Shown piece by piece: positions 18,962 to 47,015 of a stretch of DNA of 64,000 nt (position 1 is the first letter of the stretch; every line of letters starts with the position of its first letter). Position numbers and translations under genes: made by a program. Origin of the DNA: Azolla caroliniana (taxonomy: Eukaryota > Plantae > Polypodiophyta); NCBI GenBank assembly GCA_043228905.1, contig JBHGNT010000007.1, positions 5,332,001 to 5,396,000 on the forward strand. Reading direction: 5' to 3'. The notes beneath the pieces are model-generated. The model was not told where the DNA came from. It saw only the letters and a list, made by a program, of their open reading frames with translations, and did no database searches.

Positions 18962-19401
18962 GGCCGTATTGGTGCGTAAACCAGAAGGCCGTTAGAAAGA
19001 TATTCCTCATAAGGAATAATTTTGGGAGTAAGTGTGGCGGCTCATTTATGAGCGGTCAAGTACTGTCAGTACTTGTGTCAGCCCTATTGTCAGGGCTTGT
19101 ATAAAAGGTGCTTGTTGAGCACTGTGTATGTACAGATTGAGTATTATTTTGAATTGAGTTTTCTGTGTGTTTTCTCTCTCTCTCTCTCTGTCTCTCCCGC
19201 GTACTGTGTATATTCAAGCTCTCCATTAAACCTGCGTATTTTCTGTGTTCGGTTTTCTATTGCTTCTGCACATAATCTTTTTCGACTTTGTATAATCTGT
19301 AACTCTTATTTATTTTTTAGCTCTTTGAATCTTAAGTCTTCAAGTCCCCATTGTAAGCAAGCTAGATATCTCTCTCTCTCTCTCTCTCTCTTCTGAATTA
19401 G
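18962..19401 (+). other. Inverted segment carrying the outer part of Copia A's 3' LTR, its TSD and host flank
   Basis: 18962-19284 is the reverse complement of LTR-A sequence. It is followed by ACTTT (19285-19289), the reverse complement of the AAAGT flanking the other LTR (25511-25515). This creates 131-bp inverted arms at 18962-19092 and 19402-19532. Confidence 0.85.
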
Positions 19402-19807
19402 TGACAATAGGGCTGACACAAGTACTAACAGTACTTGACCGTTCATAAATGAGCCTCCACACTTACTCCCAAAATTATTCCTTACGAGGAATATCTTTCT
19501 AACGGCCTTCTGGTTTACACACCGATACGGCCATGTTATGCATACTGATTTACGCACCCAATCTACACATTGGGTTACACACCGTATTACGCACGAATGT
19601 TGAGCTTGTCTCTCAACACTCCCCCTCAAGCTCAACTTGAGGTTCCACCTGCTCCGCCGGATCTACGCTCCGGTTCCTTCTGGCTTCACGCCTCACTCGC
19701 GCTCCTCGACTCGTTCGATTCCGCGCGCCTCGACCCTTCCGGTCGGCTTGTCTACTTACATGGCCCTTCTCAACTTCCTTGCTGTTGTGGTGTTGGCACC
19801 TCTTCTA

Positions 19808-25075: not shown

Positions 25076-28000
25076 TTTGCTTTTACATGTTCTTCTTGGT
25101 TGGTTTCCTTTTCAAGCCATGTTGGCTGCAGAGGTTCTCAACCCTTGCGCTCTGATACCATGAAAAAGATTATGTGCGGAAGCAATAGAAAACCGAACAC
25201 AGAAAATACGCAGGTTTAATGGAGAGCTTGAATATACACAGTACGCAGGAGAGACAGAGAGAGAGAACACACAGAAAACTCAATTCAAAATAATACTCAA
25301 TCTGCTGACACAAGTACTGACAGTACTTGACTGCTCATAAATGAGCCTCGACACTTACTCCCAAAATTATTCCTTACGAGGAATATCTTTCTAACGACCT
25401 TCCGGTTTACGCACTGATACGACCATGTTATGCATACCGATTTACGTACCCAGTCTACGCACTGGGTTACGCATTGTATTATGCACGAATGTTGAGCTTG
25501 TCTCTCAACAAAAGTTATCGGACATATCGGTTTTGTTCGAATTGGCAAAATCCGAGAACAAAAGGCCGAGCCGACTGGGGTTGGAAGAACTAAAGCCGAG
25601 CTTCGAACTATCGATGTCGATTGTCCGAGAATGTCCTGAATGTCCGACTCAATCCGGACAGATTCTTCTCTACGCTCATCTGATGCCAAAGGGATCAGAA
25701 TCGATCCGCCAAAAGACACTTCGTTATCCCATCTATGACATTATTGGCTGTAGGTATCTTCTCGAGGCCGATTTTCCCTGAAATGATGCAGTCCCGAACA
25801 AAGTGATACCGAGCGTCGATATGCTTGGAGGCGTTGAGATGAACTAGATTTTTCGATAGAGCAACACCCTAACTGTTGCTGAGTCGGAGTCGACTTGTTG
25901 AAATGTGAGCGCCAGTCGATTGAGCTATAAAGCCTCTTTCGCTGCATCGAACGTGGCTACGTATTCGACCTCGGTTGTTGATGTGGCAATGCACTCCTGA
26001 AATTTCGATTTCCATGAGATTGCTCCATTGCCGAATTTGAAATAGTATCTAGTTGTCGATTTTCGACAGTCCACGCAGCCGACAAAGTCTGAGTAGGTAT
26101 AGCTGACTATGCCTGAAGTATCATTCGGGCCGAATAGGATGCTTGACGTATCATTCGGCACAAAAACTATGATAGACTTTTGTGCCCACAAGGTATCTGA
26201 ACACATGCTTAATTGCATTCCAACGGTCGACCAAGATTGTGCATAAATGTCAAAGTTAACGTGCGGAAGCGTTAGACAGGACCTGCTCAGTCGGATAGCA
26301 ACAGAGAATAAGATGAAGGTTTAATGGTGAAGCTTAATACACAGAGAGTATACACAGGAGAGACAGAGAGAGCAGAACGTAAACTTTGATTCAAAATAAC
26401 TCTAAAACTCTGTACATAGAATGTGCTTAGAGAGCACTTTTTACTAGTCCATAAAGGATTGATAGAAGTACTGACAGATACTTCAATACTCCTATGTGCA
26501 ACTGACACTAACTACGAGACAATGATTACCTAGTAGTCTAGGCTACTACTAGGCTTCCGGTTCCCGCTCGAATCCGGCTCAGGCTTATTCAGCCGATCCG
26601 GATCCAGTTGAGCTTGCTCGCTCAACACTCCCCCTCAAGCTCAACTTGAGGTCGGATCGTGGTGTCAGTGTCAGTGGTAACCATTTCTTCTACCCGGCTC
26701 CTTCTGGCATCGCTCTGCCTTGCTCGCGCTCCTCGTCCGGTCTGGTCTTGTTTGCCGCGACCCTCCTCGGTCAGCTTGTCTGCTCACCAGGCCCATTTCA
26801 ACTCCCTCGTTGCTGCGACTCTGGCGCTTGTCGACCCATCGGTTCCTTTGTTTTGGCATCGACTTCCCCTGTGTCTGTGTCCGCTTGGCCTTTAGTTGAT
26901 CCGACTCCTTTGAATCTGTTGAGCAAGCAAGCTCAACCAGATCCGGATTGGCTGAATAAGCTTGAGCCGGATCGGCATCCGGAAGGATGAGCCGGATCGG
27001 TATCCCGATGGTATTCGGAAACAACCAGCCGGATCGGAGAGCTGGATTCGAGCCGGAACTGAAAGCCTAGTAGTAGCCTAGACTAATAGGTAATCATTGT
27101 CTCGTAGTTAGTTCAGTCGCGCGTGTGAGCATTGAAGTACCTATTAGTACTTCTATCAGTCCTTTATGGACTTGTATAAATAGTGTTGTTTAGCATGTTG
27201 TATGCACAAAGTTTTAGAGTTAATTTTTTGAATATAGGTTTATGTTCTGCTCTCTTTTTCTCCTCTGTGGTTTAAGCTTTTCCATTAAACCTTCATCTCA
27301 TTTTCTGTTGCTATCCGGCTGAGCAAGTTCTGTCTAACGCTTCCGCACATTAACATTCACATGGTATCAGAGCGCGAGGGTTGAGAACCTCTGCAGGCGA
27401 CATTTGCTTTTGTAGACGAACCCTAGAACCTAGTAACAACAAAGAGAGAGAAGATATGGAAAGAGGAATGGCGAGTTCACTTCCAATAGAGAAGCTCGAC
27501 CAGAGCAACTATGCATCCTGGTCATATAAAATGCACCAGTACTTGTTGGGGCATGGATATTGGAGTTTCGTGGAAGGAACAAATGAAGTAGCACCGGAGT
27601 CGTCACACAAAGACTTCTCGGTATGGGAGTAAGGAGCGAGTCGGGTACTATACTGTCTCACGTCCGGTGTGCATGATCAAATGCTCAGCTACATCAAGGA
27701 TGCAAAGACACCGAAGGAGGCCTAGGAAAATCTATGGAAGATTTTCGCCGCAAGTACCATAGCTCGTAAGAGCTGAACAACATCCGGCAAAGAGATATGT
27801 CGGTTACAGACTACACCCCCAAGATAAAGGAGATTTGCGACGCACTCAGGTCCATCAATGTGACGGTGGATGAAGACGAGACGGTACAAATCTGCTTCGG
27901 TGGTCTAGCGCAAAGGTACGGGCCAATCCGGACAGCGATTTGCACCTAGGAGAAACCACCGTCCTTCTTCGACTTGCAATCGATGTTGATAATCGAAGAA

Positions 28001-28959
28001 AACCACGCGAGTGGGTCAAGGACCACTCAATCGGACGGTCGGATGCTGTACACGGAGACAAATCGGCCCCATGAACGTGGTGGACGAGGTGGGTCGGCAC
28101 ACAATGGAGGCGGCTGACAAGAGCAGGACTGGAGGCACAGAGGTTGCGTCGACAGCAGTTCCGGACCCTCCACAAGCAGGGGGAGTCAAAGCGACGTCGG
28201 GAACCGACAAGGAAAGGCCGACACGGTGTCGGGGTTGCTACGCCCTTGCGCGCAGAAAGGAGGAGGGACCACGGGGGTCTTGGACCGAAGAGCAAGAGAG
28301 AGAGAGACCCGATTACACAGAACCGAAGATCGCACAGGGACACGGCCCAACAAACAGAGATCACAAACAAACGCCGACGCAGATGGACGCAACAACGAAG
28401 ATATGTACTTATGAAAGCAAGAAAATAACAGACCAAAGTATTACAACCCACGGTAGGGCACGAAATAGATACTAACGAAAGCGAAGAGGGCGGCGAACAG
28501 ATGCCGACCCCTGTATGTCGCGACGCACGGAAAGGGGGAAACAGGTCGGAGGTGCTGCAGGATGCACTCGGGGCGTTCCACGGAACAGCGCAAGCCTCCT
28601 CGAAACCTGCACAGGTACGCGATGGAGCAGAAGACAACGAAAGCAGGAGTGAGAGAGGAGCTCCGAAAACGGTTCGGCAGCACTTCGTCCTCTCTCCGCG
28701 AGATACCCCACTTCTATTCTTCCTCTTCCTTTTATATCCCGTCAAGAGGCCGTTTGGCATTAACTGCATACCAACCGAATCTACCCACCTAGGATCCTCG
28801 TATGTACTTCTTGGCGCGCGTGTGTGTAGAGCCGTTTCCCACGCCTTGTTCCTCCGATTCCTCTCGTGGGCGGTTTTCTTCACGACATCCGCCCCCACCT
28901 AACCGCGCATCCACCGGTATGCGCCCAATTAAGTTGGCACGGAGAAAACCGGCCCGTCT

Positions 28960-31900
28960 TTACTCTTCGCCTGCCGGCCCTTCCTCGGCCTCGGATCGGT
29001 CGTCGCTGCTGTCCAGGAGAATCGGGTCGGGTTCGTCGTCGTGCCGCTTCTTGAAAGCTTTGATCCTCTTCCCGGCCACGGGTATCGCTATTCTCGTACC
29101 GTCGAGTTCCGCCAGATGATACGTCCCGTTGTCGTTGGCGCTCTGTACCGTGTACGGCCCGAACCATCTCTGTGCGAACTTCCGCGTTGCTCGGTGCTGG
29201 TTGTCGAGGCTGCTGTCGTAGACGAGCACCCAGTCACCTTCGTCGATTTTCTTCGGTCGTAGCCGGTGCGTTCGGTCGAACCGGGCTTTGTTCTTTGTCC
29301 TCGCCACCCGGAGCTTCTCCGTAGCCAGTGCCACGTCCTCCGGTCTCCGCTCGAGCTGTCGTATACGCGCGGCCAACAACTCCTCCCGGCTCATCTCGTC
29401 CCTCCAGTCGACCGTTGCCCACGAGGAGATCGTCCGTTCAATCGGCATGATCGGCTTCTGGCCGAACATGAGCTCTGTCGGCATGTACCCGGTTACCGAA
29501 CTGTGCGTGGTCCGGTCTGCCCACAAGGCATAAGGTAGGAGCCGCGGCCAGTCACCGATTCGGCCTCCGCATGCCCGAACCAACGCCTTGACGATCGGTC
29601 CGTGCCCGCGCTCCACCTTTCCATTCGCCTCCGGATTGTACGCAGTGGTGAGCGAGAGCTTGACCCCCAGCCGGTCGAACAGCTCCGCGGCTTCTTCGGC
29701 GTCCAACTCCCCTCGGTCAGCCACGATCTTCCCGACGCACCCGTACCGGCATATCACGTCCTCGATTAGGAACCGACACACGGCCGCGGTCGTCTTGTTC
29801 TGAAGGGCTCGGCCTTCCACCTGGTTCGTCAGGTCTTCCCGCGCTAGGACCAGATACCGCATCTGTCCTACCCCCATTGGCATCGTCACCAGATCTACCA
29901 TCCATTTGAAGTGGATAGTCGGAGGGTACGTAGGGCGAAGCCCGTCCCGGTGTCGGACTATCGAGTGCATCTGACAACTCTCGCAAGTTGACACGAACCG
30001 ATGCACGTCCCGGTACAATCCCGGCCACCAGTACTTCCCCTTCAGCTTCTCAAACGTCGCCCACGTTCCACGGTGTCCAGCCCAAGGGCTGTCGTGGTGG
30101 GCCGCCAGTAGCTCCTCCTGTTCTTCCTTCATCGCCACCACCCGGAGCGGGACGCCGTTCCTCTTCTTCGGGTGCTTCCACAAATGCCCATCTCGGAGAA
30201 AGAATCGGTATGCTTTCTTCCGGATCCGGTTGGCCTCGTCCTTCGTCCATGACGCATCGGGCGTCATTGCCTTCAAAAACCCGCCGATCTGCAGCCACTC
30301 CCCGTCGTACTTGCTCGCGTCGAACTCGTTAAGCGTCGGAGTGCTCATCCCGTCGGTCGTTATGTACGCCGCCTCGAAGAAATCCACGCCGACTTCTTCG
30401 TCTTCCGAAACCATGCCGCCCTCGTCGTCGAACCTCGCCCTCGAAAGCATGTCGGCCATGGCGTTGTCTTTCCCGGAAATGTGTCGTATTTCCGGGTCCA
30501 GGGACTTGATGTACGCTATCCACTTGAGCATTGCCAGGTCCGGAGTCGCGCATCCGGAAACCATACCGAGAATCGGCAGGCAATCCGTCTCGATGATCAC
30601 TTCTGTCCCTATCAGGTAATCTTTGTCGGCCTTAACCGCCGAAACAATACCCCAGAGTTCGCGTTTAACCTGGGCGTATCCTCGCTGCCGTTCACTGAGG
30701 ACTTTCGCGCCGAATCGGATCGGAAACCGATTGCCGTCCTCGTCTTCCTGGTTCACGACCCATCCGATCCCGGTCGGACTGGTATCCACCGTTATGAATA
30801 CCGGGGTACCCTTCCCGTATACCGCCTTTCGGAGTGCCGTTGCCGCTGCAAGGGCCTCTTTCAGCTTCCGAACCGATTCCGCGTGCTCGTCCAGCCATTC
30901 GAACCTTCGCCCCTTTTTCAGCAACCCGTACAGTGGCTCCGCGACGTGTGCGTAATGCGGGATCCATATGTGGTAGAACGCGCATGCCCCCAGGAATCTC
31001 CGTACTTCCGTGACCGAGCTGCAGTCGGGCTTCATCGCGGAGATGGCTTCTACCTTTGCCGGAGACGGTTTCCGGCCATATGGCCCGCACAGGTGTCCGA
31101 CCACCATGATTTCTGACTGCCCGAAGGCCGACTTCTCCCCGGAGAAGGTGAGTCTCGCATCCTCTAGCCTTTGCAGCACCTTCTCGCAGTCGTCGATGTG
31201 CGTCGCTACGAATCGCCGGCATCCGTCCGGCCCGATCGTCTCGTCCCTTTCTTCCACCGGGCATCCCTTGATCGGAATGTCGTCCAGAAACGGCATGGTG
31301 ATGTCCGGGATACAGTCCCTCAGAACCTTGTTCATCGCATTCACCATGTGGGCCACCGAGTTGGTCCCTCCTTGCGGCAGTGTACACATCCGAACTAGGC
31401 CGAGGGGAGTTCGCATCGTCGTAATGTCTCTGCTCTCCACGGCTAGCTGGAACTGGTCGTACCCTGAGTATAGATCCCCGACCGAGTAAATTGACCTTCC
31501 GGCGAAGGCCTCCGCGAACTCGTCTATGGTCGGTCCGATCCCTGCGTTCCGAATGGTCACTCGATTGACCGGCTGCAGGTCCTGGATGAAGCGCAACGAA
31601 CCGTTTTTCTTCGGTACGGTAAACCATCGATTCGAATATGGGGCGCTCGACGGCTCGAGAATTCCCATATCAACTTTCTGCCTCAGCAGCTCCATCAACT
31701 TCGGGATGTGAGCTCTCGGAACCGGGATTGGCTTGAGATTCCATGGTACATGCGGTACCGTGAATATCACCATTGGCTCCACGATCGTCGGGTCAACGCA
31801 CCCGATTTCCTCCGGCGAGAATGCGAAGGCTTTCCCGTGCCTTCCGAGCATTCTCCGAAACCGGTCTTCCTCCGCCGGCAGTAGGAACCCGCCCCCACCT

Positions 31901-32442
31901 ATTTTGAGCTCTCGGAGCGTCTCGTCGGTGAAGGTGTGCCCTATGCAGGCCGGATCTCGTAGACTAGGGTCCGATGCAACCCCTTTGATTCTCGACGCGC
32001 TGTCCTCCAGTAAGGGTGCCGCGACTGGCCTTACCTTCCGGTCCACAGTCTTGTACTTGGTGCTTACGCGGGCCGTCCGAACTGACTCGAGTCCTCGACC
32101 GAAGTCCGCGATGACTCCGTACATCTCCTCGGAACACACCGGTATCGTCCGGTCTTCGTTAAGGCCTTCTTCGACCACCTTTCCCAGCGTCCCCAAGGTG
32201 TCGTCGAATGAGACCGCCTCCACGGCTCCGCTGATTTCCTCGTCAGGGCCGAGAACTCCGCACGCTCGAAGTCTCCCCTCCGCCTTTGTCTTCTCTCGGC
32301 CGCCGATGCCGACTATCGTACACGCTCCGCTGTCGGAGAAGCAAAATACCCTACTTGTCGTACACGGTTTTATCGTACAAATGTGAGGTTTTCCCGGAGC
32401 ATCCGGACTGTCGCGGCCCCACGCCTTGGCAGTCCTCTCTAA
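28960..32442 (-). CDS. pol: Gypsy B pol (RT-RNase H-integrase), uninterrupted ORF of ~1,160 codons, entered from the -1 frame
   Basis: SAPYSNRWFTVPKK, DLYSGYDQ, LPQG, PFLDD; RNase H VDTSPTGIG..ETDCLP..NAMADMLSR; integrase HH..GHRG..CESC, WMVDLV, VADRGE, NGKVER, WFGPY. The frame stays open upstream of the tracked GTG (32223) back to the gag stop. Confidence 0.93.
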   Translation of the reverse strand, partial: LERTAKAWGRDSPDAPGKPHICTIKPCTTSRVFCFSDSGACTIVGIGGREKTKAEGRLRACGVLGPDEEISGAVEAVSFDDTLGTLGKVVEEGLNEDRTIPVCSEEMYGVIADFGRGLESVRTARVSTKYKTVDRKVRPVAAPLLEDSASRIKGVASDPSLRDPACIGHTFTDETLRELKIGGGGFLLPAEEDRFRRMLGRHGKAFAFSPEEIGCVDPTIVEPMVIFTVPHVPWNLKPIPVPRAHIPKLMELLRQKVDMGILEPSSAPYSNRWFTVPKKNGSLRFIQDLQPVNRVTIRNAGIGPTIDEFAEAFAGRSIYSVGDLYSGYDQFQLAVESRDITTMRTPLGLVRMCTLPQGGTNSVAHMVNAMNKVLRDCIPDITMPFLDDIPIKGCPVEERDETIGPDGCRRFVATHIDDCEKVLQRLEDARLTFSGEKSAFGQSEIMVVGHLCGPYGRKPSPAKVEAISAMKPDCSSVTEVRRFLGACAFYHIWIPHYAHVAEPLYGLLKKGRRFEWLDEHAESVRKLKEALAAATALRKAVYGKGTPVFITVDTSPTGIGWVVNQEDEDGNRFPIRFGAKVLSERQRGYAQVKRELWGIVSAVKADKDYLIGTEVIIETDCLPILGMVSGCATPDLAMLKWIAYIKSLDPEIRHISGKDNAMADMLSRARFDDEGGMVSEDEEVGVDFFEAAYITTDGMSTPTLNEFDASKYDGEWLQIGGFLKAMTPDASWTKDEANRIRKKAYRFFLRDGHLWKHPKKRNGVPLRVVAMKEEQEELLAAHHDSPWAGHRGTWATFEKLKGKYWWPGLYRDVHRFVSTCESCQMHSIVRHRDGLRPTYPPTIHFKWMVDLVTMPMGVGQMRYLVLAREDLTNQVEGRALQNKTTAAVCRFLIEDVICRYGCVGKIVADRGELDAEEAAELFDRLGVKLSLTTAYNPEANGKVERGHGPIVKALVRACGGRIGDWPRLLPYALWADRTTHSSVTGYMPTELMFGQKPIMPIERTISSWATVDWRDEMSREELLAARIRQLERRPEDVALATEKLRVARTKNKARFDRTHRLRPKKIDEGDWVLVYDSSLDNQHRATRKFAQRWFGPYTVQSANDNGTYHLAELDGTRIAIPVAGKRIKAFKKRHDDEPDPILLDSSDDRSEAEEGPAGEE

Positions 32443-34565
32443 AAATCCTCTCGGTTGTCGGAACCGAGGGAGTCGCGGTTACGCTCGTGGTTCGGCCTAA
32501 CCGTCAAAAACTGGACCGAATGGCGCCCGTCCTGGCTCTTGACCCGCGCATAGGCCGAACCGTTGTCCAGCACCTTGGTCTCCATTCGAGCCGCCGTGAT
32601 GTACGGCTCTCCCAGTATGACGGGGTGCGATGACGACTCCTGCACGAAGAAGTGCTGGTCTATCTCGACATCGCCAATCTTGACCCGTACATTCGGGCAG
32701 GCCCCGTGAAGTTCCTCGGTGGCGCGCGTCGCCGCCCTTATCTTCCATCCGTGCTTGGTGTTGATCGGCCATTTGCCCTTCTTATAGAAGTCCATGGACA
32801 TCAGGTTGATTTCCGATCCGTGGTCCACCAAAGCTACTACCGGTTCCTGGACATCGCCGATCTTTACCGGGGTCTCCGTGGTCGCTCGGGCCCAGTGTGG
32901 CCGCGAATAGTGGCTTCCCGCCCACTCGTCTTCCAGCGCCATGTCGTCCAGGTGCGTCGTCCGCACTTCCACCGGTCTCTCCGGTTCTGTCTCCGTTGAC
33001 AGCCTCTTCCGTTTCACCAAGTCCACAATGGAGTCGTGGAACTCCTTCTTGGCGATTCCCAGCACCTCCCGTAGCGACAGCTCCACCTTGCTGTCGAGGA
33101 TCCGTTCCTCCAGGACCTTTCGTAAGTCCGTGGTTCTTTCTATCTCCGTCCCCAGACGGTACCCGCCCTTCTGGGGTTTATCTCGCGTACCGGCCCCGCC
33201 GGCTTCGTCCCGTCGTGGCCCGGACCGGGTCTCGTATCGTTGTGAGGGCCCGGTCGTCCCGGGTTTCCCCACCCGCTTCTCTTCTACCAGAGCCTCGTAG
33301 TTCCGGCAAGCGGCTTCCACGAAGCCCGTCTTTTCCTCGACCGGGTCGCTCCACCCGGTCATCTCCCGTACCCGTTTCTCCGCACGGTCCGATTCCTCCC
33401 TTTTAAGCCCTGCACCGGCAAGGCCTTCCAGCATCGTCGGCCAGAATCCGGCTTTGCTTTCCCCCCGGGCCTCGCCGCCCCCGACTCGAATGCCGGCTGA
33501 CGCCGAGTAGTGGACGGTTTCCGCATGTCGGGCCGCCGCCTCTTCCATCAACCTCCTCATTCCGCCTCGCCCGTCGTTTCGGTTTAGGGCTCTTCTCGTG
33601 TCGCTGGCGTGAACCCGTCCTTCCCACAGGTACACCACCCTGTTCCTCAGCGCCTCCGCGAAGTCGCCGCAGTCCTTCCGAATGTGGCCGACTTCATCGC
33701 ACCACATGCACCTGTTTCCTGCCGCCGGCCGCCGGTCACGAGCCGGTTCGCCTCCTTCCCTTCGGGCCTGCGCGATTTGGAGGTCCTTTATCGCCTTCGT
33801 CAATTCCTCCAGCGCCGCTCCTCCGGTTGAGCCTCTGACTACGCCGGTCGAAGCCGAACCGGTTTCCAACCACTCCCGGGTCTCTTCCATGCGCACCTGC
33901 GGCGCTGGTTCGAGCTTCCTTGCAGCGACCGAGCCCGACCCGGTCGCCCCGTTATCCGCCCATTCTCGCCGTTTGTCGAAACGGCCACAGACCTTCCTGA
34001 CAGCCGCCCAGTCGGTAGTGAGCCCGTCTTCGGTCTCCAGCAAGAAGCCCACTTGCTCCCGATCCCGCTCGTCGACCGACTTGACAAACAGCAAGACCCG
34101 GCTCGTGTCCAGGATGGTTCTGTCGAGCGCCGAAAGGCGCGCAAAGTTTTCCTCGAACTCCCGGAGGAGCGCCGACGCGTTTCTTCCCTTCCCCGGGGAC
34201 TCCACCTATTCCATGAACCTTCGCTTCGAAAGCCGGAGCGCGTCGTCCAGCCCGTATTTCTCTAGGAGCCGACCTTCGAACTCCTCCCAGGTACGGCTCT
34301 CCGTCCGCACCTCGAGCACCTCCGCATGGATGCTCGGCATCGCCACTCGGGGAAATCCGGCAAGACGCCTTTCTTCCGGAATGTCCCGCATCAGCATCTC
34401 TGCACCGTAGGACGCCAAATACTTCGTGGCATCTTTCCCATCGAACCGGCCGATCGTGCCGACGACCGCCTCAATAGCTCTGTCGAGGGCACCGGTGCTC
34501 TCGCGCGCGTTTACAATCCGATCCACGGCCGAAGCCATGGCCTCTGCGAGATCCGACCCCCTCAT
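32439..34565 (-). CDS. gag: Gypsy B gag-protease (~708 codons) with one internal TAG at 34208-34206
   Basis: ATG about 25 nt after the PBS; GRFDGKDATKYL; zinc knuckle CMWCDEVGHIRKDC; protease ALVDHGSEINLM..VILGEPY. ORFs 34206-34592 and 32439-34205 are contiguous in one frame. Confidence 0.88.
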
Positions 34566-37500
34566 TTCCTGCTCTTCTGCCGCCTCTTTCACGTCGGGTT
34601 CACCAAGATGTCGGGGTTGCTACGCCCTTGCGCGCAGAAAGGAGGAGGGACCACGGGGGTCTTGGACCGAAGAGCAAGAGAGAGAGAGACCCGATTACAC
34701 AGAACCGAAGATCGCACAGGGACACGGCCCAACAAACAGAGATCACAAACAAACGCCGACGCAGATGGACGCAACAACGAAGATATGTACTTATGAAAGC
34801 AAGAAAATAACAGACCAAAGTATTACAACCCACGGTAGGGCACGAAATAGATACTAACGAAAGCGAAGAGGGCGGCGAACAGATGCCGACCCCTGTATGT
34901 CGCGACGCACGGAAAGGGGGAAACAGGTCGGAGGTGCTGCAGGACGCACTCGGGGCGTTCCACGGAACAGCGCAAGCCTCCTCGAAACCTGCACAGGTAC
35001 GCGATGGAGCAGAAGACAACGAAAGCAGGAGTGAGAGAGGAGCTCCGAAAACGGTTCGGCAGCACTTCGTCCTCTCTCCGCGAGATACCCCACTTCTATT
35101 CTTCCTCTTCCTTTTATATCCCGTCAAGAGGCCGTTTGGCATTAACTGCATACCAACCGAATCTACCCACCTAGGATCCTCGTATGTACTTCTTGGCGCG
35201 CGTGTGTGTAGAGCCGTTTCCCACGCCTTGTTCCTCCGATTCCTCTCGTGGGCGGTTTTCTTCACGACAACGAAATGTTGATACTGTGGCAAAAAGGGCC
35301 ACAGGGAAAGCGAGTGCTGGAAGAAGCGCGCCGATTTAAACAAATCCAGATCCGGAAAAATTGGTCGGGAGAACTAGCAAAGCTCGAACTACGCGGAAGG
35401 ATCCGAAACTGGGAAAACCGGTAAAGGGCTAGCCTTCGTGATGATGCACAAGGCTAACTCGATGAAGAAGACTACTTATGGATCAGAGGAAGTATGGTAC
35501 GTTGATTCCGGAGCGTCCAACCACATGACGAGCCATGAAGAGTGGTTCTCTTTTACGGAGAAACCGAAACAACCGAGGATTGTCGAAACCGGAGACGACA
35601 CCCCTCACCTGATTGTGCATGTCGAAGAAGTCCCTTTAAGCCATGTCAGACAAAAGGGGAAGCTGATGAACATACTACACGTTCTGACTATCACAAAGAA
35701 CCTGGTGTCAGTTGGGCAAATCGTCGACCGGGGGATGCAGGTGCGGTTTACGCACCTAGGGTGCTTCATTGAGGAAGAGGGCCGGATAATTGCGCAAGGG
35801 AGTAGAGACGGGAGGATGTTCATCCTCAACACTAATGATGTCGGCACCGCTATGTTTGCAAAAGGGCAGAAGATTGAATCAGACATCGACCTGTGGAACA
35901 AGCGGATAGGCCACGTCAAATATTGGAGGCTTCAAGACCTGCAATCGAAACAACTCGTTTTCGGTTTGCGAAATTTAGCGGCCGGAAGGCTGAAATTTGT
36001 GAAGCTTGCCAACTCGAGAAGCAACACCGGCTTCCATTCCCCACCGATCAAAACCGGAGCCATAACAAGCTCAATTTAATTCATTCAGATGTATGGGGAC
36101 CGACACAAAACGTTAGTCTTGGCGGGAGTCGGTATTTCGTCTCCTTCATCGACGACTACAGTTGGCACACGTGGATCTACCTCATCGAGAGGAAGAGCGA
36201 AGTCTTCGAGTGTTTTCGGAACTTTCAAAGCTTGGTTGAATGGGAAACAGAGAGGCAGATCAAGTGCCTGTGGTCGGATGGTGGGAAAGAATTATTTTCC
36301 GGCCAATTCAACACTTATCTACAGCAGAACAGAATTCGGAGAGAATTCAGCTGCAGGTACACACCGGAGCAAAATGGTCTGGCTGAAAGGAAGAATCAAT
36401 CGATTGTCCACGCGGCAAGGGCAATGCTGGAGGAGAAGAGCAAGGCCCATTTCTACTGGGCTAAGGCGGTCTGGATGGCCGTTTACATCCAAAACTGGAT
36501 TAGTGACAAGGTGTCAGCACATGAGATGTATTTCGGGCGAAAGCCGAATTTGAGACGCTTTCGGATATTCGGTAGCATAGCATATGTGCATGTACCGGAT
36601 GAGAAGCGAAGGAAGCTAGATCTGAAGTCGAAGAACTGCATTCTAGTCGGTTACTCGCATGAGCGAAAGGGGTATAAGTGCTATAACCCTGGACTAAGCA
36701 GGTCCGAGTAAGCCGAGATGTCGAGTTTGATGAGATGACATCATGGTACTGCTTACCGACTCCAACTCTCGACGAAGACCCAATTCCGGAAGATGAGGCT
36801 AGTGAGCCCGAGGAGGTCCAAGTAGAAGATGAAGACTTCGGCACTCTAGAAGAGAATCCAATCTCATTCTGGCTAAGTGGACCGAATGAGCGGCTGAGTC
36901 GGGATGAGGAACCGGCGAGTAGTGGAGACTCTTCAGTGCTCTCCCCGCGCAAGGAACTGAGGAGACGGTTCACGCGCAAAGAGAAGGGGAAGAAGAAGAT
37001 GCCGGAATACGAAACCGGCAACGTTGAGTTGGATCGGAGCGAATCCGACTCCAGAAAGGATGAAGGCGGATCTTCAGGAACGAAGTCCGACCTGGCCAAG
37101 AAGGGCCCCAAACCAGGTAATACCAAGTTACGCTGGTCTTCCTGCCTGAACACCGGCGTTACACGGTACGGGTACAATGAGTACATGGCGCATCATTATG
37201 CATTCATGACTAAGGTGGCGGAAGTGCGTGAGCCGGAGAGCTACGCAGAAGCGGCAAAGGACACAAATTGGTGTGCCGCTATGGAGGAAGAAATGTTGGC
37301 ACTAGATGCCAATGACACATGGGACCTCGTTGACCCTCCCCGACATTGTAAACCGATCGGTTGCAAATGGGTGTACAAGGTAAAGTACAATGTCGACGGT
37401 TTGGTTAACCGGTACAAGGCCCGATTAGTGGTGAAGGGATACGCACAGACTCACAGAATCGACTACAACGAGACCTTCGCCCCGGTAGCGAAGATGACGA

Positions 37501-38382
37501 CGATTCGTGTGGTATTGGTGGTCGCTGCGGCAAGGAGGTGGAATCTTCACCAGATGGACGTGAAGAATGTGTTTCTTCAAGGTGACCTTGAAGAACGGGT
37601 CTATATGATCCAACCTCCCGGTTTTCAGTCAGAGATGAACAAGTCGGTGGTGTGCTGGCTCAAGAAGTCGCTTTACGGTCTGAAACAAGCCCCCCCGAGC
37701 TTGAAATGCGAAGATCATGCACCGGTTACGTAAGATGGGGTTTGTGACCTCAAAATCCAACTCGTTGTTGTTTGTCCGGCAAGGTCTGGACGGTCCGGTT
37801 TGCATCCTACTTTATGTTGATGATTTAGTCATCACCGGACCTGAACTCAATGAAATCGGCCGAGTAAAGTCCCAGCTATCGGACTCATTTGAAATGAAGG
37901 ACCTGGGGGACCTTCATTATTTTCTTGGGATCGAGGTGATCCGAACCCTCGACGGTATATTGTTCTCACAACAACACTATGTGTTGAATATGCTGTACAA
38001 GTTCGGTATGACGGAGTACCGACTTGTCTCCACACCCTGGACCAGAACCAGAAGCTCTGTCCCAACTCAAGACCGGCTTGTGATGAGAAATGGTTTCGAC
38101 AAATCGTCGAAAGCCTGATATACTTGACAATCACTCGACCCGACCTCAGTTACCCGGTCGGAGTGATCAACCATTTCATGTAGAAGCTGACTGTCGAGCA
38201 CCCTCATTGCGCACACCAGATACTCCGGTATGTGAGCGGCACGAAGGACCGGGGACTGTTATACCAGGATGGTATAACTGAAGAACTAGTCGGATATACA
38301 GATGCCGACTGGGCCGGTGATGCATCGGATCGCCGATCCACACCCGGTTACATGTTTTCTCTAGGTAGCGTGGGTGTTACGT

Positions 38383-41300
38383 TGTCGTGAAGAAAACCGG
38401 CCATAGGCGGAATCGAAGAAAAAGGTGCATGAACCGGCTCTTACACGGGTGGACGCGAGGATTGATATATTGTACATAATTCGTAATTAGGGCGACTGGT
38501 GTAAATACTAGGTAGTGCACATTTATTAGGGGATTTTGTGTGTATCTTTGTTGACAAGGACAGGGAATAAAGCTGTTTGGCTAAGGAAAAGGGGGCACCC
38601 CCTTTTGGGGAACTATTTAAGGAGGGAGAGAAGGAAGGAACAGGGATCGCGCGTTAAGGAGGACGAAGTGCTGCAGGACCGAGAGCCTAACTCTCTCTCC
38701 TGCTCCGACCGTCATTCTCTGTGGGTATGGGGGAGTTCAACGCCTCTGCTTCGTGGGTAGCCCATGCGCTGCCAGCAGAGGCTTTTCCTTCTGCGTTTCT
38801 CTGGGTCCAGTGTGTTCCGTCTGTGTGCGTGAGTAGGGTCCCCGTGTCGGGTCCGTCGCCGCCTTGCCGGTTGTAACCGTCGGAGTTATTGTAATCTCTT
38901 GTTATTGTAATCGAGTGTTCCGTTCTTTATATCTCCTTCTCGCTTCTGCGTGTCTGTGAATCTCTCTCTCTCTCGCTCCTCGGTCCAAGACCCCCGTGGT
39001 CCCGCCCTTCTACGCGCATGCGTGTAACAACGCAACATAGTTGGTGAACCCGACGTGAAAGGGCGGCAAAGGAGTTGAAAGATGAGGGGATCGGAGCTAG
39101 CAGAGGCAATGGCGGTAGCCGTCGACCGGCTGGTAAGCACTCGTGAGGGGACGGGTACCCTCGACAGAGCCATTGAATCGATTGTCGACTCTATAGGCCG
39201 GTTCGGAGGGAAAGACGCCACAAGTTATTTGGAGGCTTACCGGGCCGAAATGATCATGAGGGATATCTCGGTGGACAGGCGGTTGTCCGGATTCCCTCGG
39301 GTGGCGACACTAGGCATCCACGCGGAGGTGCTCGAGGGGCTGGCCGGATGCCAGACTTGGGAGGAGTTTGAGCTGCAACTCCTCGAGAAGTACGGGTTTG
39401 ACGACTCGCTTCAGCTGTCGAGGCGGGACTTCATGACGTCGGTGGAAAGCCCCGGAAAGGGGAGGAACACGTCGGTGCTCCTCCAGGAGTTCGAAAAACG
39501 GTTCGCGCGGCTGTCGACGCTGGACCGGACGGTGCTCGAAACGAGTCGAGTACTACTGTTTGTCAAGTCGGTGGACGCGCTCGACAGTGAAAAGGTGGGT
39601 CCCCTATTGGAAACGGACGAAGGGCTCACGGCAGACTGGGCCGTCGTAAAACGGGTCTGCAGCCATTTCGACAAACGACGCGATTGGAGCAACGGGAGCT
39701 CGTCAGGGTCAGGGCCGGTCCCAGGGAGCAGGCTCGAGGAGCCGGTATCGATGCGGGCTGGTAGGAAGGAAGAGACCCGAATCTGGCCAGAGTTGGGGTC
39801 GGCATCGAAGGACGTGGTCAGAGGTCCATCCGGAGGAGCGACTCTGGAGGAATTGACGCAGATGGTGCGCGACCTGCAGATCGCATAGGCCCGGAGAGAC
39901 AACGACGAACAACCTTGCGACCGGAGGCCACCCGCTGGGTAGCGGTGCATGTGGTGTGACGCGATCGGTCACATTCGGAAGGATTGCGCGGATTTCGCCG
40001 ATGCGCTAAGGGCCAACGTGGTGTACCTCTGGGACGGGCGTGTGCACGCGAGCGAGACCCAGAGAGCCCTAGAGCTAAATACGGGGCGTGGCGGAATGAA
40101 GAGGTTGATGGAAGAGGCCGCGACACGACACGTTGAAGCCGTTAACTACTCACTGTCGGCGGGAATTCGGGTCGGGGGTGATGAGACCCGGAAGGCGAAG
40201 GACTTCGGATTCTGGCCGCTAGTGCTAGAAGGCCTCTCCGGAGTTCGGCTGAAGAAGGAAGAGGCGGACCGCGCGGAACAACGGGTCCAGGAGGTCACCG
40301 ATTGGGACGATCCGGTTGAAGAGAAAACGGGCTTCGTAAAAGCCGCTTGCCAGAACTACGAGGTTTTGGTGGAAGACAAACGGGCAGGAAAGGCCGGAGG
40401 GGTTGGTCCCCCGCAGAGGTACGAGACTCGGTTCGGACCGAAACCGACCGGTGTTGGCAACCCAGGCGCGCCGGACGGAAAGAAGCAGGTGGGGTTTCGG
40501 TTGAGCACCGAAATCGAGAGAGCAACGGACCTACGGAAGGTCCTGGAAGAGCGGATCCTCGACAGTAAGGTGGAGCTGTCGTTGCGGGAGGTGCTGGAAA
40601 TCGCCAAGAGGGAGTTCCACAACTCCATCGTAGACTTGGTGAAGTGGAAGAGGCTCTCGACGGAGCCAGAATCGGAGAAGCCGGTGGAGGTGCGGACTAC
40701 GCACTTAGAAGACGCGGCCCTAGAAGATGAGTTGGCGGAAAGCCACTACACGAAGCCGCATTGGGCCAGGGCAACTACGGAAACCCCTGTGAGGATCAAC
40801 GATGTTCCGGAACCGGTGGTGGCCTTGGTAGACCATGGATCCGAAATCAACCTTATGTCCATGGATTTCTACAAGAGGGGTAAATGGCCGATCAACACCA
40901 AGCATGGGTGGAAGATATGCGCGGCGATGCGTGCTACGGAGGAGCTGCATGGTGCGTGCTCGAATATACGCGTAAAGGTCGGTGACGTCGAGATAGATCA
41001 ACATTTCTTCGTGCAGGAAACATCCTCGCACCCAGTGATTCTCGGCGAACCATACATTACGGCAGCACGCATGGAGACGAAGGTGTTGGACAACGGTGTA
41101 GCGTACGCGTGCGTCAAGAGCCAGGACGGTCGACATTCCGTCCAATTCATGACCATACGTCCGGACCATGAGAGGAATCGCGAGACTCTCGGCGGTGACA
41201 GCCGAGGGGATTTTTAGAAAGGGCTATTAAGGCGGGGGGCCGTGGTAGTCCGGACGTACCAGAAGAACCCCACACGTGTACAGTAGATAGGAAGTTTTGG

Positions 41301-44300
41301 TTCTCCGAAAACGGAGGTTGTACTATAACCGACGTCAGCGGCCGGGAGAGGAAGCGAGCGGAGGAGTGGCTCAGGGGATGCAGAGTCCTCTTCCCTGACG
41401 AAGACATTAGCGGCGCCGTGGAGGCGGTCTCTTTTGACGACACCTTGGGCGAGCTGCGAAAGGTGATCGGTGAAGACCTTAGAGAAGACCGGACCGTTCC
41501 GGTAGGGTCAATGGGAATGTACGAAGTCATCGCGGACTTCGGGGAAAGGATCGGGTCGGATCCGCGTGGATACAAAGTACAAGACTATGGACCGGAAGGT
41601 GAGGCCAATCGCGGCACCCTTGCCGGAGGGCAGTGAGGAGCGGATAAAAGGGGTCGCGTCGGACCCAAGTTTACGGAATCCGGCTGGCATAGGGCACCGA
41701 TTCACCAACATAACGCTACGGGAGCTCAAGGTCGGTGGGGGCGGCTTTCTACTGCTAGCGGAGGAGGACCAGTTTCAGAGAATGCTCGGGAGGCACGGGA
41801 AGGCTTTCGCATTCTCACCGGAGGAGATCGGGTGCGTAGACCCGATAGTTGTTGAACCGATGGTGATCTTCACGGTACCGCATGTACCGTGGAATCTCAA
41901 GCCGATTCCAATGTTGAGAGCTCATATCCCGAAGTTGATGGAGCTCCTGAAGCAAAAGGTGGAGATGGGCATCCTCGAACCGTCGAGTGCCCCGTATTCG
42001 AATCGGTGGTTTACGGTGCCGAAGAAGAACGGCACGCTACGCTTCATTCAGGACCTGCAACCGGTCAACAAGGTGACCATCCGTAATGCAAGAATCGAAC
42101 CGACCATAGACGAGTTCGTGGAGGCCTTCGCTAGAAGGTCGATCTATTCTGTCGGTGATCTGTACTCGGGGTACGATCAGTTCCAACTAGTCGTGGAGAG
42201 CAGAGACATTACGACGATACAGACTCCTCTCGGCCTAGTGCGGATGTGTACCCTGCCACAAGGAGGGATGAACTCAGTGGCTCACATGGTGAACGCGATG
42301 AACAAAGTGCTCAGGGATTGTATCCCGGACATCACCATGCCATTCTTAGACGACATCCCAATCAGGGGATGCCCGGTGGAGAAAAAGGACGAGGCAATCG
42401 GGCCGGACGGATGTCGCAATCTCGTGGCGTCCCACATCGATGACTGCGAGAAGGTGCTGCAGAGACTAGAAGGCGCGAGGCTCACCTTCTCCGGGGAAAA
42501 GTCGGCCTTCGGGCAATCACAGATCATGGTTGTCGGGCACCTATGCGGACCATACGGTCGGAAACCGTCGCCGGCCAAGGTGGAAGCCATCTCCGCGATG
42601 AAGCATGACTGCAATTCGGTCACGGAGGTCCGCAGATTCTTGGGAGCATGCGCGTTCTACCACATCTGGATCCCACACTACGCACATGTCACGGAACCCC
42701 TCTACGGACTATTGAAAAAGGGGTGTAGCTTTGAGTGGAGGACGGAGCACACGGAGTCGGTACGGAGACTAAAGGAGGCGCTTAGGTAGCGCTGACTCTT
42801 CGTAAAGCGGTTTACGGCAAGGATGTTCCCATCTGCGTGACAGTGGACACTAGCCCGATCGGGATCGGGTGGGTAATCAGTCAGGAGGACAAGGACGACG
42901 TACGATTCCTGATCCGGTTCGGGGCGAAGGTATTGAGCGAGCGGTAACGAGGATACGCCCAAGTTAAGCGCGAGCTTTGGGGTGTTGTTTCGGCAGTCAA
43001 GGCCGACAAGGATTATCTGATCGGGACAGAGGTGATCATCAAGACGGACTGCCTGCCGATACTCGGCATGGTTTCCGGATGCGCGACGCCGGACCTAGTA
43101 ATGCTTTGGTGGATAGCATACATTAAGTCCCTGAACCCGGAGATACGGCACATCACCGGAAAGGATAACGCCATGGTCGACATGCTTTCAAGAGCAAGGT
43201 TCAACGATGAAGACGGCATGGTTTCGGATGACGAAGAAGTTGGCGAGGACTTCTTCGGGTCGGTTAACGTAGCAACGAGGGAAAGGGACACTCCGACGCT
43301 TAACGAATTTGACGAAAACAGGTACGACAGGGAGTGGCTCCAGATCGGGAGGTTCCTACGGACGATGACGCCGGACGTAACATGGACGAGAGAAGAGGCG
43401 ATCCGGGTACGGAAGAAGGCGTACCGATTCTTCCTGCGGGACAAGTGCATATGGAGGCACCCAAAGAAGAGAAATGACATCCCGCTCCGAGTAGCGACAA
43501 AGAAAGAAGAATAGGAGGAACTACTCGCGGCATTTCACGAGAGTCCCTGGGCCGGGCACCGCGGAACGTGGGCCACGTTTGAGAAGCTGAAGGAGAAGTA
43601 CTGGTGGCCGGGGCTGTACCATGACGTGCATTGGTTCGTAACGACTTGCGAAAGTTGTCAGATGCACTCCGTAGTCCGACACCGGGACGAGCTACACCCG
43701 ACCTACCCGCCTACGGTCCATTTCAAGTGGATGGTGGACTTGGTGACGATGCCGATGGGGGTAGGACAGATGCGATACCTGGTGCTTGCACGGGAAGACT
43801 TAACGAACCAGGTGGAAGGCCGTGCACTGCAAAGCAAGACAACCGCGGCGGTATGCCGGTTCCTGATCGAAGAAGTAGTGTGTCGGTACGAGTGCGTCGG
43901 GAGGATCGTGGCGGACCGGGGAGAGCTGGATGCGCGGGAGGTTGAGGAGCTGTTCGACCGGCTAGGCGTCAAACTCTCCCTCACTACGGCGTACAATCTG
44001 GAGGTGAATGGAAAGGTGGAACGTGGGCACGGGCCGATCGTAAAGGCGTTGGTGTGTGCATGCGGAGGGCAGGTCGGGAATTGGCCGCGACTCCTTCCTT
44101 ACGCACTATGGGCAGACCGAACTACGCACAGTTCGGTGACAGGGTTTATGCCGGCAGAGCTGATGTACGGACAGAAGCCGATCATGCCGGTGGAACGAAC
44201 GGTTTCTTCTTGGGCGGCGGTAGATTGGAAGGACGAAATGAGCTGGGAAGAGTTGCTGGCGGCGCGGATTCGGCAACTCGAGTGGAGGCCGGAGGACGTG

Positions 44301-45427
44301 ATATAGGCGAAGGAAAAGCTGCAAGCGGCAAGGGAGTGGAACAAGACCCAGTTCAACCGGACGCACCGGTTGCGACAAAAGAAGATCGAGGAAGGCGATT
44401 AGGTCTTGGTATACGACAATAGCCTCGACAATCAGCACAAGGCGGTGCGAAAGTTCGCTAGGAGATGGTTCGGGCCCTACACGGTGATGAGTGCGAACGA
44501 CAACGACACGTACCACCTCGCGGAACTCGACGACGGTACACGGTTAGCGGTGCCGGTGGCTGGGAAGCGGATCAAAGAGTTCAAGAAGCGGTTCGAAGAT
44601 GAGCCGGAGCCGGCGAGCGAGAGTAACGACGACGATCAGTTCGGGTCCGGCGAAGGATCGGAGAACGACGAGTGAAGCCGGTTTTCTTCGGTGTCTACCC
44701 GTCTCTGGCGCATGCCGGTGGATGCGCGGTTTGGTGGGGGTGGATGTCGTGAAGAAAACCGGCCATAGGCGGAATCGAAGAAAAAGGCGCAGGGACCGGC
44801 TCTCACACGGGTGGACGCGAGGATTGATATATTGTACATAATTCGTAATTAGGGCGACTGGTGTAAATACTAGGTAATGCACATTTATTAGGGGATTTTG
44901 TGCGTATCTCTGTCGACAGGGACATGGAATAAAGTTGTTTGGCTAAGGAAAAGGGGGCACCCCCTTTCGGGGAAATATTTAAGGAGGGAGAGAAGGAAGG
45001 AACAGGGATCGCGCGTTAAGGAGGACGAAGTGCTGCAGGACCGAGAGCCTAACTCTCTCTCCTGCTCCGACCGTCATTCTCTGTGGGTACGGGGGAGTTC
45101 GACGCCTCTGCTTCGTGGGTAGCCCGTGCGCTGCTAGTAGAGGCTTTTCCTTCTGCGTTTCTCTGGGTCCAGTGTGTTCCGTCTGTGTGCGTGAGTAGGG
45201 TCCCCGTGTCGGGTCCGTCGCCGCCTTGCCGGTTGTAACCGTCGGAGTTATTGTAATCTCTTGTTATTGTAATCTCTTGTTATTTTAATCGAGTGTTCCG
45301 TTCTATATCTCTCCTTCTTGCTTCTGCGTGTCTGTGAATCTCACACACACTCTCTCTCTCTCTCGCTCCTCGGTCCAAGACCCCCGTGGTCTCGCCCTTC
45401 TACGCGCACGCGCGTAACAACGCGACA
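38383..45427 (+). mobile_element. Gypsy C: full-length relative of B, decayed, inserted in Copia F RNase H
   Basis: LTRs 38383-39037 and 44745-45427. Perfect TSD ACGT (38379-38382 and 45428-45431). PBS TGGTGAACCCGACGTGAA at 39042-39059. PPT at 44732-44744. Confidence 0.97.
39082..44675 (+). pseudogene. Gypsy C gag-PR (39082-41217) and pol (~41214-44675) with stops and frameshifts
   Basis: Collinear with and highly similar to B proteins (ALVDHGSEINLMS, PFLDD, VADRGE, WFGPY), but broken into several ORFs. Confidence 0.93.
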
Positions 45428-46879: not shown

Positions 46880-47015
46880 TCCGATTCGTTCCAGCCCTTG
46901 TCTGAATCAGTCGCTCCCGATTCGTTCCGGCTCTTATCCGAATCGGTCGCTCCCGATTCGTTCCGGCTCTTATCCGAATCGGTCGCTCCCGATTCGTTCC
47001 GGCTCTTGTCCGAGT
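46880..47015 (-). repeat. 33-bp tandem repeat, ~4 copies, encoding SDKSRNESGAT-like units
   Basis: CCGATTCGTTCCGGCTCTTATCCGAATCGGTCGCTC repeated; see ORF 46858-47058. Confidence 0.92.

Follow-up and report, generated by a model that had tools for sequence, protein, structure and literature searches.

A conserved candidate frameshift cassette between protease and reverse transcriptase in Phygy-like LTR retrotransposons of plants

The window analysed, a stretch of 64,000 nucleotides of contig JBHGNT010000007.1 from Azolla caroliniana, contains two related LTR retrotransposons, designated B and C, with the following features:

28227..35269, minus strand: element B, a Phygy-like Ty3/gypsy LTR retrotransposon of 7043 bp, lying inside an older element, with flanks ACGG/ACGA
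34609..35269, minus strand: 5' LTR of B, 661 bp, with one mismatch against the 3' LTR
about 34590-34606, minus strand: primer binding site of B, following the 5' LTR
32439..34600, minus strand: Gag-protease frame of B, with DUF4100, a zinc knuckle and an aspartyl protease with a D-H-G motif, ending ..REDF and a stop
28960..32448, minus strand: pol frame (-1) of B, with a conserved linker of ~130 codons followed by RT, RNase H and integrase, and no chromodomain hit
28227..28887, minus strand: 3' LTR of B, preceded by a purine-rich tract
38383..45427, plus strand: element C, an older relative, 7045 bp, with LTRs 92% identical, target-site duplication ACGT and a copia element as host

The Gag-protease frame of B is broken by a single in-frame stop (34206-34208), and both gag and pol of C are interrupted by stops and indels; C is a decayed copy, since its pol homology moves to another frame near 41565-41580. 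A search of PDB sequences with the protease gave no hits.

B and C appear to be Phygy-like Ty3/gypsy elements, with proteins of Physcomitrium patens as their closest named homologues. The domain order is Gag-PR-RT-RH-IN, and a Pfam scan found neither a chromodomain nor an aRH. The 4-bp target duplication is of the form NCGN (ACGT/ACGT in C; one mismatch in B), a matching pair being present in 11 of 20 full copies and the others being unresolved or mismatched. The primer binding site is conserved among copies, and that of B is presumably of the tRNA-Trp type. Such a primer site is a trait of Phygy (PMC6317226, Additional file 5), and the likeness to Phygy as described there extends to the NCGN duplication, the compact internal region and the absence of a chromodomain, whereas B and C, at 7.0 kb, are shorter than the 7.7-10.0 kb given there, a range that describes a single species and is no defining trait. 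The REXdb table of the same source gives the ORF organisation of Phygy as ND, and a GAG-PROT frame overlapping RT-RH-INT prevails in no gypsy or copia lineage of that table. The Phygy-like identity had escaped the first-pass annotation of this DNA, as had the alpharetroviral layout and the sister clade with pol in +1 discussed below.

At the junction of the two frames, both elements carry a heptamer, a stop codon and two potential stems:

32442..32448, minus strand: slippery heptamer G GAT TTT of B, with the stop TAG at 32439-32441
32436..32441, minus strand: spacer of B, TAGAGA, 6 nt
32405..32435, minus strand: stem 1 and loop of B, 31 nt, with arms at about 32435-32424 and 32416-32405 and the loop strand of stem 2 at 32422-32417
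32383..32388, minus strand: 3' strand of stem 2 of B, CCTCAC, 16 nt past stem 1
41208..41217, plus strand: heptamer G GAT TTT (41208-41214) and stop TAG (41215-41217) of C
41221..41251, plus strand: stem 1 and loop of C, 31 nt
41268..41273, plus strand: 3' strand of stem 2 of C, CCCCAC

The first-pass annotation had the Gag-protease frames of B and C both ending in G GAT TTT TAG, and all coordinates were verified; GGATTTTTAG occurs at just two places in the window, the B and C sites. The stem that it placed after the heptamer (GGACTG..CAGTCC in B, behind a 6-nt spacer, and GGGCTA..TAGTCC in C) is present in both, together with the described changes of G-C to A-U and A-U to G-U between the copies. 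The -1 frame, which had been called open into pol, is open through the whole of pol in B (1172 codons stop to stop) but for only 143 codons in C. Of the pairings described between the G-rich loop and the downstream strand, that of GGGGGG with CCCCAC in C has only five of six positions matched. The window copies of B and C each carry private changes in the stem 2 strands; among B-family loci CCCCAC occurs in 28 of 30 and GTGGGG in 30 of 30, and among C-family loci GTGGGG occurs in 20 of 30 and GGGGGG in one. The GGC/GCC cap exists in B and C but is clade-specific and has a G in common with stem 2. It was dropped as a feature of the lineage, since 14 of 29 families do not form pair 30-40 (23 of 29 do form pair 31-39). 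Three of the four quoted folding comparisons of B and C were no better than shuffles (z of 0.10 and 0.25 over 82 nt; -1.12 and -2.32 over 47 nt). Since neither copy folded alone clearly beats shuffles, the two copies alone are weak evidence, and support for the structure comes from covariation across families. A scan of positions 32200-32700 against Rfam found no family at gathering score, with two chance matches far below it.

Throughout the lineage the DNA has a two-frame layout with a short overlap, a fixed module of heptamer, spacer and 31-nt stem 1, covariation of both stems, and purifying selection on pol from the site onward. The survey began with 210 loci, from which 9 without a complete protease and 17 duplicates were dropped, leaving 184 distinct loci; most of the metagenome loci belong to one series of related records. 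In all 184 the protease frame meets a stop within 50 codons, and none has gag, protease and RT in one frame, the arrangement that the first-pass annotation had named as refuting its proposal. Among the 167 loci with RT, the pol frame is open in -1 in 121, open in +1 in 22, in frame in none and interrupted in 24. The heptamer is GGATTTT, GGATTTC or GGGTTTT in 119 of the 121 loci with an open -1 frame, and pol is unbroken in -1 in all six full B-family copies. Most B copies have an overlap of 13 nt: in 27 of 30 B loci the -1 frame is closed at this distance ahead of the gag stop. The first G of the heptamer is the third base of the preceding codon in 27 of 27 families, with 11 different codons in this position (product of codon-usage fractions 1.3e-5). 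In 22 of these families the codon after the heptamer is a stop (TAA in 10, TAG in 8, TGA in 4; a sense codon in 5), and the spacer is 6 nt in all 27 -1 families of the alignment, within the canonical range of 5-9 nt (PMC3542737). The X_XXY_YYZ rule includes G_GA variants (PMC5009743), and the parts of a -1 PRF signal are all found in the DNA: a heptamer inside the frame overlap, a spacer and a 3' structure, the last by covariation only. At the protein level, 62 of 120 homologous Gag-PR proteins have a C-terminal DF. The exception among the 68 rows inspected is a distant protein (P0179; 44% identity, 1374 aa), known as protein sequence only, with protease, linker and RT in one frame. Nine long homologues are automated gene models from Riccia and Physcomitrium that join PR to pol and skip the site, and these joins are read as predicted introns. 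A scan of IMG/VR gave eight pattern matches, with no relative among them.

The structure was evaluated in an alignment of 29 families (A2, MAFFT) drawn from 32 junction clusters, with a split of the C family, a deletion copy and a decayed copy left out. Stem 1 shows two-sided changes at 6 of 8 pairs and has 80% of its cells paired, against 27-41% when slid and with 0 of 500 shuffles as high, although such controls overstate independence because the families are related. As alignment A2 puts the 3' strand of stem 2 out of register, this stem was assessed by scripted tests with permutation controls; the fitted pair table leans towards the structure. The helix formed within a family has -13.6 kcal/mol, as opposed to -11.1 +/- 0.45 when families are permuted (0 of 20,000 permutations as good) and -8.3 in shuffled windows. 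The 3' strand lies 11-16 nt downstream of stem 1, and a scan of registers without fitting has its maxima at 14 nt (5-6 pairs in 16 of 29 families) and 16 nt (10 of 29). Complementarity is kept with changed letters, G-C for A-U at columns 35, 36 and 38 and U-A for C-G at column 34. Stem 2 has only four contiguous pairs in C and in one other family (L074), and in 11 of 29 families at least 13 of the 28 foreign strands pair no worse than the family's own. From this covariation, the loop and the downstream strand likely form an H-type pseudoknot.

Downstream of the site, the distance from stop to RT varies from 341 to 452 nt, with the frame kept in every case. The linker ahead of the conserved Met (..SIDMY..), which lies ~105 codons past the stop, has dN/dS of 0.13-0.50 in 14 of 14 pairs, and such purifying selection on the linker as pol-frame sequence speaks against both an intron and an internal start. 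For RT, dN/dS is 0.03-0.19 in nine of ten unsaturated pairs and 0.48 in one short, close pair. No splice joints were present in 274 raw RNA reads over the B junction, a shallow and weak test; the reads are few, map to both strands and derive from relatives that are 90-99% similar, the +1 family is represented by five only, and runs with small word shares were excluded as evidence.

In a sister clade, which forms one side of a 99/100 branch, the site is AG GTT TTT, the spacer is 5 nt, 1 nt shorter than in the -1 relatives, and pol lies in +1. AGGTTTTT is found in 42 of 43 contexts of this clade, and the -1 frame meets an immediate stop in 39 of 43. The family, about 7.9 kb long, is young: LTR pairs are at least 99% identical in 12 of 14 full copies, all 14 of which have a Gag-PR of 739 codons, with pol unbroken in +1 in nine. 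Selection is evident here too, with dN/dS of 0.16-0.18 for the linker (at dS 0.9) and 0.08-0.13 for RT.

The best explanation, considered highly probable, is a recoding cassette conserved in the Phygy-like lineage of moss-type LTR retrotransposons. Ribosomes translating Gag-protease would reach G GAU UUU, where most would terminate at the stop; a predicted H-type pseudoknot, folding 6 nt downstream of the heptamer, would make a minority shift by -1 and enter the linker-RT-RNase H-integrase frame, with protease made at the level of Gag and RT-RH-IN limited, as in alpharetroviruses. A G_GAU_UUU heptamer with a nearby stop functions in plant ribosomes (PMC4737148). In the derived clade the same knot, with AG GUU UUU and a 5-nt spacer, would likely produce a -2 shift. 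Judged by itself, the proposal that the +1 clade reaches pol by a pseudoknot-driven -2 shift is favoured with reserve. A little more guardedly still, the whole may be pictured as a plant retrotransposon lineage with a pseudoknot, ancient and local, between protease and RT, which one active clade switched from -1 to -2 as the frame moved by one base (site AG_GUU_UUU), giving a natural, protein-free -2 shift in a retroelement.

Splicing of the Ogre type, with an intron across the gag stop that joins protease to RT in some transcripts and uses TTTTTAG as acceptor, or CAG|GT as donor in the +1 clade, is very improbable. The string CAG|GTTTTT resembles the splice donor consensus, and the automated gene models do skip the site, but their joins fall at several different points, the families with TAA or TGA, 14 of 27, lack the acceptor AG, and the stretch from stop to RT stays in frame under protein-level selection. 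Splicing has been demonstrated for Ogre (PMC6317226), but the RNA reads over the B junction, shallow as they are, have no such joints. Separate translation of pol, by reinitiation or by internal initiation at the conserved Met, can scarcely be credited either: this Met is at its column in 24 of 29 families, but in every pair ~80 codons before it are open in the pol frame and show purifying selection, the first Met is scattered from codon 6 to codon 111, and the conserved heptamer would be left unexplained. Decay, in the form of an indel inherited by non-autonomous copies that a helper moves, has almost no chance of being correct; B and C are themselves broken and a deleted family with Gag-PR only exists (L061, L188), but the absence of in-frame copies, the constraint on RT and the unbroken pol of full B-family copies oppose it, and it is contradicted by the selection that acts on pol in the -1 and +1 classes alike.

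Two further alternatives accept recoding and differ in its mechanism. It is unlikely that a real -1 shift is stimulated by the stem 1 hairpin together with the stop codon, in the manner of umbraviruses, with stem 2 incidental or an alternative fold. In several families stem 1, taken as a plain hairpin, extends to 11-12 bp, some families have a short stem 2, the stop is mostly immediate, and stop codons matter in PEMV (PMC4737148); this reading is opposed by the pairing of stem 2 being kept with different letters at a narrow range of distances. For the +1 clade alone, a +1 slip on GUU UUU N in place of a -2 shift is a possibility, if a lesser one. As reported, +1 frames are mostly accessed by +1 shifting (PMC5009743), and P-site slips from GUU to UUU in +1 have been proposed for closteroviruses (PMC3542737). 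In 40 of 43 contexts the codon CAG precedes the site, so that conservation of AG is inseparable from coding, a point in favour of the +1 slip.

Control of the Gag:Pol ratio in plant LTR retrotransposons is known mostly from splicing cases, and in the available text of a 2016 review (PMC5009743) the only plant elements cited are +1-frame ones from a 2003 survey (Gao et al. 2003). A literature search, with subscription papers and Repbase notes outside its scope, found no prior description of this signal for Phygy or DUF4100, nor of any -2 shift in a retrotransposon. The putative cassette offers a defined 75-nt signal common to about 30 families, would place the alpharetroviral layout in a Metaviridae-type lineage, and would correct the annotation of very abundant elements at a site where gene finders appear to invent introns. 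The -1 and +1 clades would constitute a natural test of the mRNA-tension model, because both would land the A-site tRNA equally far from the knot, and as they share one knot a single reporter series could ask whether spacer length sets the direction of shifting in nature.

The first-pass annotation had placed most retroelement recoding sites upstream of the protease; alpharetroviruses have the layout of B and C as a textbook case (PMC3185560): in RSV/MAV the protease is in the Gag frame and equimolar, and a -1 shift where gag ends gives access to pol (PMC3185560, PMC3542737, PMC5009743), whereas the present elements are LTR retrotransposons of plant type with another heptamer, a compact predicted pseudoknot and a D-H-G protease motif. 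Ogre and Retand (Tat) also have a break between protease and RT, but it is an intron in Ogre and a single in-frame stop in Retand, both with an aRH, whereas here the frames overlap and differ. Skipper, considered as another precedent for a PR|RT break, was set aside, the available text of PMC5006619 giving no support. On the comparison with RCNMV made at first pass, the literature gives G_GAU_UUU for pea enation mosaic umbravirus, a G_GA start for dianthoviruses and a stop directly after the RCNMV site (PMC4737148, PMC5009743), but the RCNMV heptamer is not spelled out in the available text of these sources. The likeness to umbraviruses and dianthoviruses (PEMV2) includes the heptamer, a spacer of 5-6 nt and a stop at or near the site, which may be any of the three; those viruses have a large bulged hairpin and long-distance pairing to the 3' end (PMC4737148), whereas here the partner is 11-16 nt downstream in what would be a local H-type knot. 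The +1 clade AG_GUU_UUU resembles the arterivirus nsp2TF -2/-1 site GG_GUU_UUU (PMC4937337), which in PRRSV requires nsp1beta/PCBP and has no RNA structure, whereas the +1 clade signal would be cis-acting and pseudoknot-driven. The protein-bound C-rich stimulator found 10-11 nt downstream in arteriviruses is absent from the +1 clade, in which a stem starts 5 nt downstream, and the clade may therefore work like the arterivirus signal but is not it. Spacer-tuned -2 shifting on U6A was engineered by Lin et al. 2012 (PMC3458567), whereas that of the +1 clade would be natural.

The post-protease -1 frameshift cassette that a first-pass annotation proposed for elements B and C is a real feature of the sequence, and comparison with related copies makes the earlier interpretation very probable. 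The coordinates and base changes described for the two cassettes are all present in the sequence of the elements, which lie in a 523-Mb genome (G000):

Element B: 28227-35269, minus strand, 661-bp LTRs with 1 base different between them
Element C: 38383-45427, LTRs 92% alike, ACGT target duplication

The first frame of B encodes DUF4100 and a weak match to aspartyl-protease, with one in-frame stop in gag (34206-34208), and in its second frame RT, RNase H and integrase follow the Ty3/gypsy order and a chromodomain is absent; the pol of C is disrupted by indels. The nearest proteins with a named source come from Physcomitrium patens, Riccia sorocarpa and Adiantum nelumboides, which suggests a bryophyte-type host, and the NCGN duplications and compact structure agree with the Phygy lineage, the ORF organisation of which is given as not determined in Additional file 5 of Neumann et al. 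(PMC6317226). A nested Ty1/copia cluster (19400-25500, 26200-38380, 45430-52340 and 52479-64000) surrounds the two elements, with B in one stretch that resembles an LTR and C within the RNase H region of a copia element; the LTRs of the cluster have ends similar to those of the B and C LTRs (TGTCGTGAAGAA). A 6388-bp tandem duplication with 99.98% identity (52767-57612 and 59155-64000) is explained either by LTR elements arrayed in tandem or by a duplicate introduced in assembly. A host gene for a protein kinase has exons at ~6490-10350 (minus strand), and a degenerate 12-bp tandem array lies at ~11190-11970.

Of 210 loci fetched (130 from G000 and 80 from metagenome contigs), nine lacked a complete protease and 201 were analysed, 184 of them distinct; in all 184 the protease frame stops within 50 codons of the last conserved protease motif. 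An RT in frame with protease, which the annotation had set against its own reading, occurs in none of the 167 distinct loci with RT: the RT frame extends uninterrupted in -1 to a point upstream of the gag stop in 121, is open in +1 in 22, and is interrupted in 24. The heptamer is found in 119 of the 121 open -1 loci, as GGATTTT (113), GGATTTC (4) or GGGTTTT (2). All 30 B-family loci contain GGATTTTTAG, and in 27 of them a stop closes the -1 frame 13 nt ahead of the gag stop, so that the heptamer is the sole place to shift; pol is unbroken in -1 in all six full B-family copies. The heptamer is conserved at the nucleotide level: its first G occupies the third position in 11 different codons and is replaced in none of the 27 -1 families, and its Asp codon is GAT in 25/25. 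The following codon is TAA, TAG, TGA or sense in these families, which rules out conservation of a splice acceptor and agrees with PEMV, whose shift site is described as working with any stop codon (PMC4737148).

Among the homologous Gag-protease proteins, 62 of 120 have a C-terminal DF. In a wider set of 68 representatives that extend to the end of the protease, 18 terminate in DF, GF, NF or VF and 17 at most eight residues from such a motif. Counter-evidence consists of nine long homologues, which are gene models skipping the shift site, and P0179, a distant relative whose protease, linker and RT share a single 1374-aa frame, which keeps DF near the usual place and represents either a lineage with fused frames or a copy with an indel. 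In a second group (L152, L156, L157 and L169, with P. patens and Adiantum proteins) the stop is usually six codons past the heptamer, inside stem 1; the proteins end DF/GF-xxxx-PL (a PL end is found in 26/120), and the knot geometry is unchanged with different letters. L061 and L188 (G000 C1 and C1099) and L168 constitute a non-autonomous family, a derivative that retains only Gag-protease, as an intact frame of 758 codons, with a deletion of pol immediately ahead of the 3' LTR.

Folding of the B and C copies alone gives weak evidence for the structure drawn from them (z = 0.10 and 0.25 over 82 nt; -1.12 and -2.32 over 47 nt), and stem 2 has one change private to each copy. When representatives of 29 families are aligned with MAFFT, the stem-1 module begins 6 nt past the heptamer and extends 31 nt without gaps; the covarying stem is borne out by two-sided changes in six of the eight pairs predicted by RNAalifold, and the GGC/GCC cap holds within the B/C clade and not elsewhere. 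The upper pairs of stem 1 are variable, with pair 31-39 kept in 23/29 as G-C, A-U or G-U. Against controls inflated for both stems by the relatedness of the families, a 13-pair version of stem 1 has 80% of cells paired versus 72.5% in shuffles (0/500) and 27-41% when slid, and the best helix of the loop with its own downstream window (stem 2) averages -13.6 kcal/mol versus -11.1 +/- 0.45 for permuted families (0/20,000) and -8.3 for shuffled windows. An unfitted register scan for stem 2 has its main peak at 14 nt and a second at 16 nt, and among the fitted pairs three columns alternate between G-C and A-U and one between U-A and C-G; in 11/29 families the G-rich loop pairs no better with its own strand than with roughly half or more of the foreign strands. 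The resulting geometry (stem 1 of 8-12 bp, loop of 1-2 nt, stem 2 of 5-8 bp, loop of 11-16 nt) would be that of an H-type pseudoknot, which is probable in preference to a plain hairpin. Rfam has no match to the cassette. In the B/C clade (32404-32396, minus strand, and relatives) loop 2 has 16 nt in place of 14. It is able to fold into a short hairpin (GGA/UCC in B, GGG/CCC in L096), which might be a third stem.

Every step of the mechanism is predicted from sequence: ribosomes would slip -1 at the heptamer and then translate the pol frame. Alternatively, an Ogre-like intron might join protease to pol, or pol might be initiated at a conserved Met. The 341-452 nt from stop to RT always keep frame and encode a conserved domain, and dN/dS from the knot to this Met is 0.13-0.50 in 14/14 pairs, which argues against both. 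The linker domain (100-130 residues between shift site and RT, ~32060-32380, minus strand) is under purifying selection, carries the motifs G-x-C, E-E-x-S-F-x-D-T and V-x-S-x-x-M-Y, and matches no Pfam family. As for a spliced pol mRNA, which the annotation had likewise set against its own reading, 274 reads over the B junction from three poly(A) runs contain no joints, indels or start sites, a weak test at a depth of ~5-15 on both strands with reads from relatives. The protease active site (32815-32829, minus strand) is D-H-G, not D-T/S-G, in 111/120 homologues; D-S/T-G is found in relatives further removed, several of which still terminate in DF, GF or NF. By analogy with the MAV protease, reported as a weaker enzyme synthesised 1:1 alongside Gag (PMC3185560), a weaker D-H-G protease would suit 1:1 synthesis with Gag.

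A sister clade with pol in +1, comprising the L062 family, L133 and L137, has branch support of 99/100 in a tree of 28 of the 29 rows:

+1 clade, G000: L062-L066, L068-L072, L211-L224, L231-L260
+1 clade, metagenome: L133, L137

Decay is ruled out as the cause of the +1 frame by the intact frames of the full copies (a 739-codon Gag-protease in 14/14, pol unbroken over 1164-1182 codons in 9/14), their youth (LTR pairs at least 99% alike in 12/14), and low dN/dS between subfamilies at dS ~0.9-1.0 (linker 0.16-0.18, RT 0.08-0.13). The site is AG GTT TTT in 42/43 contexts, with a 5-nt spacer and the strongest stems (stem 1 of 10-12 bp, stem 2 of 8-9 bp), and the -1 frame hits a stop after two codons in 39/43. 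In the alignment the U run is equidistant from stem 1 in both classes and the zero frame is displaced by one, so that a -2 slip would bring the A-site tRNA to the very triplet that a -1 slip reaches in the other families. A -2 shift is somewhat more likely than not to be the route to pol, a +1 slip being a less likely alternative. The -2 reading is in keeping with the arterivirus -2 motif, GG_GUU_UUU (PMC4937337), which the site matches, and with -2 shifting described as best at spacers 1-2 nt shorter than for -1 (PMC3458567). The clade is a candidate natural -2 frameshift, and this likely variant is the most novel part of the analysis; passages of a review (PMC5009743) name phage Mu, arteriviruses and Trichomonas virus 1 as having -2 shifts in nature, and no retroelement.

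The signal is not described in the literature covered, outside which lay the Gao et al. 2003 survey, subscription papers and two large REXdb supplements. Its logic is already known, since alpharetroviruses are described with the same layout as the B/C lineage, protease in the Gag frame and a -1 shift before RT (PMC3185560, PMC3542737). According to PMC6317226, among plant elements the break likewise follows protease in Ogre and Retand, where it consists of an intron or in-frame stop, and in Tcn1 and Selgy the overlap lies before protease.
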